Assembly: GCA_018263355.1 (NCBI GenBank)
Contig: JAANXH010000045.1
Span: 1-51,237 of the forward strand
From: Candidatus Woesearchaeota archaeon
GTDB lineage: Archaea > Nanobdellota > Nanobdellia > Woesearchaeales > JAGVZT01
Length of the DNA: 51,237 nt
Direction of reading: 5' to 3'
The first letter of the stretch is position 1, and every line of letters starts with the position of its first letter. Under the pieces are notes generated by a model. The model searched no databases. It saw nothing but the letters and a program-made list of their open reading frames with translations, and was not told the DNA's origin. Positions 1 to 45,567 of the stretch are shown piece by piece. Position numbers and translations under genes: made by a program.

Positions 1-176
1 ACATTTTCAAGTTCCGAAAAAGTGGTAGTCAAAGCAGAGGCGACAATACCCCACATCATGTCACTAACGTTCCTGACCTTAAGCATAGCTTAAGGCTTTA
101 TTGTGGGGATCGGTGCTTTTAGGCACCCACCGAACACAGTGACTGTGAGCCTCTGCACCACTTTTTAGTTATTTTA
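1..176 (-). ncRNA. Structured RNA motif A, copy 1 (runs off the left window edge)
   Basis: 171/176 nt identical to 2344-2519. Closing stem GCAGAGGC/GCCTCTGC (34-156) with several internal hairpins; non-coding and GC-richer than its flanks. Confidence 0.7.
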
Positions 177-15748: not shown

Positions 15749-15887
15749 GCAAAACACCTCCTTCTGGTAGGAATCAGCCCATTATCTCATAGGTTGTATT
15801 TAAGGTTTTCTTTTTTTTATAGAATTTTTGTCATAAAGATGAGATTATCATAATATTTATATATGCTTTAGAAATACTGTTTACAAG

Positions 15888-16084
15888 CCCCTCTTAGCTC
15901 AACCGCAGAGCGCTCGGCTGTAGATGCAGAAAGAGGTTCTATTAAGAAACAATGAAATTCTGCCAGCCGTGACCGAGAGGTTCCCAGTTCAAACGACCTT
16001 TTACCGCTAACGCTTAAAAGCTCGACCAAAAAGAGGAGTCTTGGCTTCGCCAATCCTCGGGTCTTGGAAGTCTGGGAGAGGGGA
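15888..16084 (+). tRNA. tRNA-Tyr(GTA) with two introns (37/38: 15924-15971; T-loop 59/60: ~15994-16070)
   Basis: C1-G72 acceptor CCCCTCT/AGAGGGG-A; anticodon stem CTCGG/CCGAG with GTA at 15920-15922; T-stem CCCAG/CTGGG; BHB-like junctions. Confidence 0.9.
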
Positions 16085-36438: not shown

Positions 36439-36480
36439 AACATGAGCTAAAATTGTGTTATTTAAAAAGTATAGGGTATT

Positions 36481-36628
36481 AGTTTATGCCTCTTGACCGG
36501 TTTCCTCGCCAGTTTGTTAAATATATTGTTTGTAAAACAAAACAGGAAATGAAAAGACAAACTGTTCCTTTTTGCATCTTACGATGACCGAGGTCTCTCT
36601 CAACAGTTTGGCCAGGGAGGCACAAACT
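36481..36628 (-). ncRNA. Structured RNA motif B, copy 1
   Basis: Long terminal stem; internal blocks homologous to 45271-45426. Confidence 0.68.
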
Positions 36629-36749
36629 CATCTACTATCTTAAATTTTTAACAAAAAGCTTTATATACAGTTTTTAATTCTGACTTGTTTAGGTCTCTGT
36701 AGCATACTCGAAAAAGCTTTTTCGGTCGCTTCAGATGCTTACCATATTC

Positions 36750-36859
36750 GCCTCTGTAGCATAGTGGTGGTGCGTAGCCTTGGTATGTTCAACTTGTTAT
36801 TTAAAGCGAGTTGAGCGACATAAAGGCTAAGGTCCCGAGTTCAAGTCTCGGCAGAGGCT
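36750..36859 (+). tRNA. tRNA-Thr(GGT) with a 38-nt anticodon-loop intron (~36786-36823)
   Basis: Acceptor GCCTCTG/CAGAGGC-T; anticodon stem TAGCC/GGCTA with GGT at 36782-36784; T arm CCGAG-TTCAAGT-CTCGG. Confidence 0.88.
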
Positions 36860-40120: not shown

Positions 40121-40173
40121 ATTAACATAAAAATACATTTAGTATTTAATATTTGTGTTGAATGACATTGTAA

Positions 40174-40280
40174 AGTTAAAGGGACAGGTGTCACCCCATA
40201 GGTACTTATAGCTATAATCTAGGAACAAAATGAAAGGGGAGTGAGTCTGTATGACTGGTGGTCGCCACGAGCATTTGACT
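40174..40280 (+). ncRNA. Candidate small structured RNA
   Basis: Nested stems AGTTAAA/TTTGACT, ACAGG/TCTGT, TCACCCC/GGGGAGTGA, TAGGT/ATCTA and GTGG/CCAC; G-U pairs favour the plus strand. Confidence 0.45.
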
Positions 40281-40349
40281 AATAAAAAAAGGCTTTTTAA
40301 GCAAAGTAATCGATAATTATAAAAATCAAACTACGTTATTATATATCAT

Positions 40350-40505
40350 GGGCTCGTGGTCTAGTGGCTACAACTTCGGTTGCCATAGATGATATCGCCT
40401 TGACGTGGCGGAGGTCCCCGGTTCAAAGCGATCTTTTTGGTAAAAAACTCGACCAAAAATTGGAGTTGCTATGCAACTCATTCGTTGAAAGTCCGGGCGG
40501 GCCCA
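40350..40505 (+). tRNA. tRNA-Val(GAC) with D-loop (40370-40388) and T-loop 59/60 (40428-40491) introns
   Basis: Acceptor GGGCTCG/CGGGCCC-A; GAC at 40402-40404; central helices GTGG/CCAT and TTCA/TGAA flanked by 3-nt bulges. Confidence 0.9.
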
Positions 40506-45203: not shown

Positions 45204-45270
45204 GCTATATTTACTATTTAGATTGTTTTAATTTAAAAATATATTGTAAAATAGGCAATCTTAAATATCG

Positions 45271-45426
45271 AGTGTTAGCTCCATTAGTGCCTGATTTGAG
45301 TGAAGGAGACAATCCTAGTCGTAAGAGTCAGTGGGGAACAGTTTGCCTTAATCAAATTAAACTCCACACAATATGAATGATGGTTTAGCAAACTGGCGAC
45401 TGAACCGGTATTATGGAGCTAACATT
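45271..45426 (+). ncRNA. Structured RNA motif B, copy 2
   Basis: Terminal stem TGTTAGCTCCAT/ATGGAGCTAACA; internal blocks shared with 36481-36628. Confidence 0.68.
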
Positions 45427-45567
45427 AGGTTGACTTTGCCTGTAAAATATGATGCTTTGCAAAAGCTGTATTTTTTACTCATTGGACATCTAGTAATTCT
45501 CATCTAACTGATTGATTTAACCGAAAATTATATATATCACAAATATTTACTTACTGGTGGTGGAGAC

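Follow-up and report, generated by a model that had tools for sequence, protein, structure and literature searches.

Two stretches of about 150 nt on opposite strands of a 51,237-nucleotide contig from a Candidatus Woesearchaeota archaeon (the window, here meaning the whole stretch of DNA analysed) have been proposed to be two copies of a new structured RNA, either trans-acting or catalytic. The question that they raise is whether they belong to an RNA gene, to the promoter region of a neighbouring gene or to a mobile element. Both were found where the preliminary description had placed them, at 36628-36481 on the minus strand (copy 1) and at 45271-45426 on the plus strand (copy 2). The ordered common blocks are seen in an alignment of the two (mean column identity 73%, flanks included), and the terminal stems are, as had been said, unlike in sequence. 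Within the window there are exactly two occurrences of the composite block TCGTAAGA-N8-GGAACAGTTTG, with 0.00 expected from 100 shuffles, and an nhmmer search of the whole genome with copy 2 as the sole query retrieved copy 1 at E = 0.005. The folding energy of copy 1 is -43.2 kcal/mol (z = -3.14, equalled by 1 of 200 shuffles) and that of copy 2 is -54.1 kcal/mol (z = -5.45, equalled by none of 200).

Searches against Rfam 15 gave no family match at either locus, which agrees with the claim of a structured family outside that database. At gathering scores, tRNA was the only match in the whole window; at E ≤ 10, both loci gave chance-level matches only, with ribozymes, riboswitches, C/D, H/ACA, RNase P, and SRP included in the search. 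For 20 further copies at E ≤ 1, the sole match (Archaea_SRP, E = 0.58) fell in the flank of a copy, L237, from the sister species G001, and none fell on a module. The match is weak and end-truncated and concerns the first part of the SRP RNA model of archaea (L237 311-354, plus strand, 18.2 bits); it adjoins the module and is syntenic to about 71262-71345 of contig C47 in the window's own genome, so that an SRP RNA gene is probably the neighbour of that module. The neighbour of copy 1 is the tRNA-Thr gene reported before: an intron-bearing tRNA at 36750-36859 (+), scored at 53.1 bits by Rfam and missed by ARAGORN, with the anticodon GGT (Thr) read by eye and with about 39 nt of intron following the anticodon loop. 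A search of the literature available to us found no account of a structured RNA in Woesearchaeota or of a covarying ncRNA in DPANN. The two stretches belong to an undescribed, structure-constrained repeat family that is absent from Rfam.

Copy number and distribution of the module

The view that there are two copies did not survive a search of the window's own genome (1.17 Mb in 60 contigs). A covariance model, R1, gave 46 matches, and a 21-base pattern from the 3' block, with at most 3 mismatches, was found at 32 places (reversed control, 0). The nhmmer search with copy 2 returned 48 matches, about 15 of them full length and many within about 200 nt of contig ends. The module family breaks assemblies, and when two copies are seen alone it can be mistaken for a riboswitch or a new RNA gene.

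Expansion by covariance model found homologues in related genomes as well. The sister species G001 holds 25 full-length, mutually diverged modules scoring 70 to 132 bits. Across a sample of 151 genomes of the order, R1 matched 4 (the window's own genome, G150, G029, and G122). Model R2 matched 2 of 41 genomes among the relatives of the window (34 matches in its own genome and 26 in G001) and 2 of 31 among the relatives of G150 (9 matches in G150 and 22 in G310, both from another family of the same order), while six other genera in the window's own family gave no match. The module is thus a multi-copy repeat with a patchy distribution, confined to a few lineages of one archaeal order, and such a spread is more like that of a mobile or recently expanded element than that of a housekeeping RNA.

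Beyond the order, a strict pattern found nothing in viral or metagenome contigs. Twenty-four metagenome stretches collected with a looser pattern were discarded, none being recognised by R2 at E ≤ 0.01, and a loose scan of genome contigs gave chance matches in unrelated bacteria. One locus of G122 (L164, contig C33, 8405-8542), GC-rich (64%) and in an otherwise unrelated genome, has a module-like block order and stems at 30.5 bits; it could be a distant member or a chance match.

The copy number also bears on the reading of the two stretches as a two-copy trans-acting or self-cleaving ncRNA gene, which we now consider highly improbable. Features that would suit such a gene are the junction architecture, the unpaired blocks that are conserved, and a GNRA-like loop, which reads GTAA or GCAA in many copies. 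Against it stand the number of copies, the failure of the E ≤ 10 search to assign a ribozyme or any other Rfam family to both loci, the loss of the GTAA block in several members, and the lack of an identified cleavage-site signature; nothing points to catalysis.

A fold kept by compensatory substitutions

The module, about 155 nt long, is one long irregular hairpin composed of a terminal stem (P1 and P2), a helix P4, a side hairpin P5, and a long variable arm P3. Model R1 was built from 14 members of the window's own genome with P1, P2, and P3, and larger sets were aligned to it. Among 29 sequences, 88.8% of the cells pair and 22 of the 26 pairs change on both sides; among 31 more diverse sequences, the values are 88.7% and 19 of 26. 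P2 covaries across the family. The stem CAGTTTGY/RCAAACTG, on which the original claim of covariation was based, pairs in each of the 14 members, 3 of its 8 pairs changing in a compensatory way, and it is 98 to 100% paired in the larger sets. Across the sets, 4 of the 8 pairs vary in a compensatory manner, so the covariation is real and much wider than had been stated.

Helix P4, absent from the aligning model, emerged from an all-against-all scan of the alignment columns. It joins GUGA-R-N-GAG to C-GA-N-Y-GAAC in nine layers (Table 1), and five of its six Watson-Crick pairs covary. With P1 to P4 taken together on the 31 sequences, 88.1% of the cells are paired, and two-sided changes are seen at 24 of 32 pairs. 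These values were reached by none of 500 shuffles and slid controls were 28 to 42% paired, but the alignments (A3 and A4) were fitted to the P1-P3 model, which favours those helices, and the sequences are related, and therefore the shuffle counts are not probabilities.

P4 also replaces the second compensated helix of the preliminary description (CCTCG/CGAGG in copy 1, AGTCG/CGACT in copy 2). The 5' positions of that helix are not homologous between the copies, and family-wide its 3' block pairs with GUGARNGAG. The proposed UCG/CGA helix is less consistent than P4: column pair 42-145 is canonical in 31 of 31 sequences, whereas members with UCA or UGA at the 5' site break it. The CCTCG/CGAGG pairing is possible, as an alternative, in copy 1 only, whose P4 deviates from that of the family at two covarying Watson-Crick layers. 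The extra CAAACTGTT noted in copy 1 is there, and none of the 30 members aligned with it has this sequence.

By eye, a hairpin of 3 to 4 bp (P5) is possible between P4 and P3 in most members; its cap is often GUAA or AUAA, and its sequence differs between members. Two further candidates were dropped: a pairing of the bulge after P2 with the AAUC block, which was 40 to 65% canonical, and a pseudoknot joining the P3 loop to the segment that precedes P3, which by eye had no consistent position. At the one pair of syntenic modules (C3 in the window's own genome and L240 in G001), double changes in P1 keep the pairing, as judged by eye. In copies without terminal inverted repeats (TIRs), P1 varies up to its outermost pairs, and the terminal stems covary to the last pairs; P1 is therefore structural rather than a fixed protein-recognition sequence. 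Compensatory substitutions keep the fold among copies of only about 55% identity, and the comparison of these sequences indicates that its core is very probably under selection.

The claim that G-U pairs agree on the orientation of the fold was not confirmed. The ratio of G.U to A.C was 41:4 in a set dominated by near-identical MITE copies, rich in MITE-A members of common ancestry, and 27:18 in 29 diverged members, where the asymmetry is not significant. Among diverged members the wobble pairs are a weak test of strand, and the lack of asymmetry there would agree with the reading as selfish DNA, to which we return below.

Table 1. Positions of the two modules and their parts in the window, and the make-up of helix P4 among 31 sequences
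Feature	Position	Strand	Pairing, score or basis
Copy 1, module without TIRs	36480..36629	-	model match 36479-36630; R1 126.8 bits, R2 117.9 bits
Copy 1, P1 5' strand	36617..36629	-	pairs with 36480-36492; 12 bp including one G.U; column mapping
Copy 1, P1 3' strand	36480..36492	-	column mapping
Copy 1, P2 5' strand TGGCC	36610..36614	-	pairs with GGTCA 36494-36498
Copy 1, P2 3' strand GGTCA	36494..36498	-	column mapping
Copy 1, P4 5' strand TTGAGAGAGA	36594..36603	-	pairs weakly with GCGAGGAAAC
Copy 1, P4 3' strand GCGAGGAAAC	36500..36509	-	column mapping
Copy 1, small hairpin P5 CATC-GTAA-GATG	36575..36586	-	read by eye, unscored
Copy 1, P3 5' strand CAGTTTGT	36557..36564	-	pairs with 36510-36517
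Copy 1, P3 3' strand ACAAACTG	36510..36517	-	column mapping
Copy 2, whole 187-bp element of subfamily MITE-A (outer TIRs and module)	45254..45440	+	alignment of 10 full copies with flanks
Left target-site duplication TGTAAAATA	45245..45253	+	flank alignment
Right target-site duplication TGTAAAATA	45441..45449	+	flank alignment
Copy 2, left outer TIR, degenerate	45254..45270	+	about 10 of 17 bases equal the family consensus
Copy 2, right outer TIR AGGTTGACTTTGCC	45427..45440	+	
Copy 2, module (bounds of the preliminary description)	45271..45426	+	R1 151.1 bits, R2 125.4 bits
Copy 2, P1 5' strand	45272..45284	+	pairs with 45413-45425, 13 bp
Copy 2, P1 3' strand	45413..45425	+	column mapping
Copy 2, P2 5' strand GTGCC	45287..45291	+	pairs with GGTAT 45407-45411
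Copy 2, P2 3' strand GGTAT	45407..45411	+	column mapping
Copy 2, P4 5' strand GTGAAGGAGA	45300..45309	+	pairs with GCGACTGAAC via Watson-Crick layers and two tandem G.A steps
Copy 2, P4 3' strand GCGACTGAAC	45396..45405	+	column mapping
Copy 2, P3 5' strand CAGTTTGC	45339..45346	+	pairs with 45388-45395
Copy 2, P3 3' strand GCAAACTG	45388..45395	+	column mapping
P4 layer 1			G-C 29 of 31
P4 layer 2			U-A 26 of 31
P4 layer 3			G.A 30 of 31
P4 layer 4			A.G 27 of 31
P4 layer 5, R-Y			G-C 19, A-U 7 of 31
P4 layer 6, N-N			U-A 13, C-G 10, G-C 1 of 31
P4 layers 7-8			G.A with A.G 19, or G-C with A-U 9, of 31
P4 layer 9			G-C 28, A-U 2 of 31

Modules with and without transposon ends

What had been described as the long terminal stem of copy 2 is the module's own P1, which lies just inside outer inverted repeats. 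In an alignment of 10 full copies of this subfamily (MITE-A), these repeats read GGCAAAGTCAACTACTC... on one side and ...AAGTTGACTTTGCC on the other. Direct repeats of 9 bp flank the 10 copies, perfect in seven, with one mismatch in one, and absent or unrecognisable in two; the variant copies C59 and C47b have perfect 9-bp repeats too. At the syntenic spot in the sister species, there is a single, uninterrupted copy of the target of copy 2, different by one base and one indel. The subfamily has about 30 copies in the window's own genome, and no open reading frame of at least 60 codons overlaps the 187 bp of copy 2. A second subfamily, MITE-B, has different ends, GATGAAGTCAAGTTTGATG, and duplications of about 9 bp. 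In G150 and G310, the IS6-like end itself makes the terminal stem, and some G150 copies have 9-bp duplications.

The ends of MITE-A are found on larger elements of the same order. A scan of 301 genomes of the order with the transposase profile PF13610 matched 48 genomes (a tally that includes G138 and G213, flagged as unpublished), and 31 loci were fetched. Three of the 31 (L193, L202, and L205) are elements of 915 to 941 bp bounded by the 12 terminal bases of the MITE, and two of the three are flanked by 9-bp duplications (L193 and L202, CTTTTTCAG and CATTATTAG). The two transposases that were scanned, those of L193 and L205, pass Pfam PF13610 and score above the cut-off of 125 for the NCBIfam IS6 equivalog (127.2 and 126.4 bits). 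Of the two MITE ends, the one 5' of the module is similar to the transposase-distal terminus of these elements for about 25 nt and the other to the transposase-proximal terminus for about 18 nt. On the strength of its sequence, copy 2 is almost certainly an IS6-type MITE; given its IS6-like inverted-repeat ends and its 9-bp duplication, it therefore arrived as a non-autonomous transposon. The IS6-like elements lack the module core, and a search with R1 gave no module in the 31 IS6 loci or next to them; the MITE is therefore a foreign module, about 155 nt long, enclosed by IS6 ends.

The copies that bear transposon ends would be moved in trans by a DDE transposase of the IS6-like kind. No IS6 transposase was found in the window's own genome, in G001, or in G150; in the own genome, whose 60 contigs may leave repeats unassembled, PF13610 had no match and tblastn with two IS6-like transposases gave weak matches to a frameshifted IS1-like gene only. 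That gene was rejected as a partner since it has no matching inverted repeats, as was an IS6-like element of G122, whose ends are unrelated; an IS256-type partner was dropped because PF00872 is absent from the own genome, G001, G029, G122, and G150. The IS1-like transposase (contig C10, 45790-46500, L221) spans three frames with zinc-ribbon, HTH, and DDE parts, and it is apparently frameshifted, with no clear inverted repeats. Elsewhere in the own genome (contig C47, 71346-71476), a different element of about 131 nt, with ends that resemble IS6-type inverted repeats, lies beside a MITE-A copy (71486-71683) and occupies the spot where the sister species has module L237.

Six MITE-A copies in the own genome are longer variants (C23:13419-13772, C6:7499-7851, C50:82160-82510, C33:4360-4694, C48:17973-18442, and C59:27039-27271). 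Four share an insert of about 165 nt in the P3 loop and two have inserts after the GAGGC block, so the extra material sits in loops of the fold. Contigs assembled from four DNA runs, three of them possibly from the source sample, have no joint that skips copy 1 or copy 2; they end at 45301 and restart at 45398 inside copy 2, and one contig spans copy 1 without a difference. The same contigs show a 115-nt skip (40370-40486), loose ends at 40196, and a joint from 45423 to 40163 bridged by letters that resemble the right end of MITE-A. The window at about 40163-40486 may hold another repeat fragment or a variant arrangement.

Copy 1 is of the other kind. It is a diverged sequence whose nearest relative is 62% identical, with no near-identical sibling found. 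No TIR core was found within 30 nt of either end and no 9-bp repeat at 8 of 9 or better, the flanks being read by eye as well. Copy 1 is an old, single-copy family member without transposon ends, one of six such modules in the own genome (with C3, C32, C6, C38, and C28). The modules of G001 likewise have individual terminal stems and, with two exceptions, no adjoining IS6 motif. In alignment A4 (31 sequences, mostly modules without transposon ends, with one MITE-A and one MITE-B copy), pairwise identity has a median of 0.55 and a maximum of 0.69, and no pair exceeds 0.8.

A possible but doubtful reading of all this is that the family is purely selfish DNA, made of palindromic miniature transposons in which the hairpin serves their own spread, as single-stranded DNA in transposition or as a by-product of inverted repeats, with no RNA function. 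The multi-copy, patchy spread agrees with it, as do the IS6 ends and target-site duplications on subfamilies A and B and on G150 copies, the IS6-like ends on G310 copies, and the exact TIR core that adjoins 2 of 31 modules without TIRs. Each of the 53 copies inspected is intergenic (0 of 28 and 0 of 25 within an open reading frame). The sister species also differ in the presence and absence of modules. The flanks of G001 modules, mapped to the own genome, gave the one shared locus mentioned above. The G001 loci L229 and L242 are empty in the own genome, and several others hold other content there, including MITE-A or MITE-B copies. The upstream flank of L234 from the sister species maps to 15844-15928 of the window at 88% identity; no module is there, which makes this another difference in presence and absence.

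The modules without TIRs fit purely selfish DNA less well. Flanking 9-bp repeats at 8 of 9 or better were found for 7 of 30, compared with 17% of mismatched flank pairs, with none at 9 of 9; there is thus no target-site duplication above the shuffled-pair null. No pair among these modules is more than 69% identical, which gives no sign of recent copying, yet their stems are intact, and this needs selection after insertion. Transposases of the IS6 family act on double-stranded ends, and IS6-like elements exist without the module. Mobilisation by a Y1 (IS200/IS605-type) or RAYT protein was rejected: Y1 genes are present in G001, G150, G310, and G002, with no module at the Y1 loci of carriers, and the own genome has none.

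RNA or DNA, and likeness to known systems

We find it somewhat probable that the whole is best explained as a family of structured modules whose fold is selected as a single strand, with IS6 ends that carry copy 2. The fold would be selected on a single-stranded molecule, most likely a transcript. A single-stranded fold is favoured because the terminal stems covary to the end, because the purine-purine steps are conserved on the modelled strand, and because old, diverged copies keep their stems. The product would be a putative RNA, small and stable, with its ends paired and with G.A motifs as possible binding sites for a protein, and the IS6 ends would have taken up this putative RNA module as cargo. 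Single-stranded DNA, too, can adopt long hairpins and tandem G.A steps, and on sequence grounds the choice between RNA and DNA appears close to even, with RNA slightly favoured. TATA-like boxes in the sense orientation lie 18 to 36 nt upstream of 12 of 31 modules, compared with 6 of 31 in a mirror control, a difference that is not significant, and several of them are promoters of divergent neighbour genes.

The position of the modules relative to genes could suggest instead a cis-acting or DNA-level element of the promoter region, that is, an upstream regulatory or insulating sequence or the leader of the downstream gene. Twelve of the 25 G001 modules end 40 to 76 nt before a co-oriented start codon, and copy 1 ends 41 nt before a gene for an ABC-transporter ATPase. 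However, this co-orientation follows from divergent intergenic geometry, and in tandem regions of G001 there are 7 co-oriented against 5 opposite modules. The downstream genes do have TATA-like boxes of their own, as had been observed: in most of 14 inspected by eye, canonical boxes lie between module and start codon, which places the modules upstream of core promoters and not in leaders. The downstream proteins, to judge from their N-termini only, look diverse and unrelated, and by eye the modules do not form the mRNA leader of a coherent gene set, as a riboswitch would. A cis-acting role is therefore improbable.

A bolder form of the RNA reading, rather unlikely on present sequences, is that the modules make up a putative new class of small structured archaeal RNA, with paired ends, a tandem G.A helix, and a three-way junction, present as dozens of fast-evolving paralogues per genome in some DPANN. 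IS6-type ends would then have captured modules repeatedly and spread the RNA gene as MITE cargo, or the RNA would aid the element, for example by attaching to a host protein or restraining the transposase. Should the fold serve as RNA, the family would be an undescribed, abundant RNA of DPANN archaea, in whose reduced genomes little spare DNA is expected, and transposon ends would here clearly be the carriers of a structured RNA. Should it be selfish DNA only, 1.2-Mb symbiont-type archaeal genomes would tolerate about 45 copies of a 155-nt repeat, and archaeal IS6-like elements would mobilise foreign cargo.

Three kinds of known system resemble the module in part. Kink-turns and box C/D-like motifs have tandem sheared G.A pairs flanked by Watson-Crick pairs. 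P4 likewise has tandem G.A between Watson-Crick pairs, and its GUGA and YGAAC blocks recall the C and D boxes. However, P4 is without a 3-nt bulge by the G.A step, the size of 155 nt and the box spacing are wrong, and no C/D family of Rfam matched above chance; the likeness is a resemblance only and not membership.

The bacterial repeats ERIC/IRU, Correia/NEMIS, and REPINs are intergenic, imperfect hairpins of about 100 to 150 nt, present in tens of copies with a patchy distribution and compensatory change. The modules share each of these traits. They differ in that the host is archaeal, that the modules without TIRs have no near-identical copies, and that no RAYT-like gene is flanked by modules. 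A further difference is the fold of the module, with its side hairpin and a conserved internal helix that contains tandem G.A steps.

The MITEs and archaeal elements of the IS6 group are the third. In the part of the published account available to us, two IS6-family MITEs in ISfinder are named (MITEBth2 and MITEHarch3), archaeal IS6-like elements have TIRs reaching at least 18 bp and are only distant kin of bacterial IS6/IS26, and the duplication made by IS26 is 8 bp (PMC6807381). Over 12 bases the ends of the MITE-A subfamily equal those of full IS6-like elements from the same order, and the resemblance extends over about 18 to 25 bases. A fixed-length duplication, the lack of coding capacity, and many copies are traits common to MITE-A and the IS6 MITEs. 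In contrast, the MITE-A duplication is 9 bp, as compared with the 8 bp given for IS26 in that part of the account, and the carrier genomes are ones in which no transposase was found. Finally, the interior of copy 2 is not a deletion derivative of the insertion sequence: the structured module there is unrelated to it and is also found free of transposon ends.
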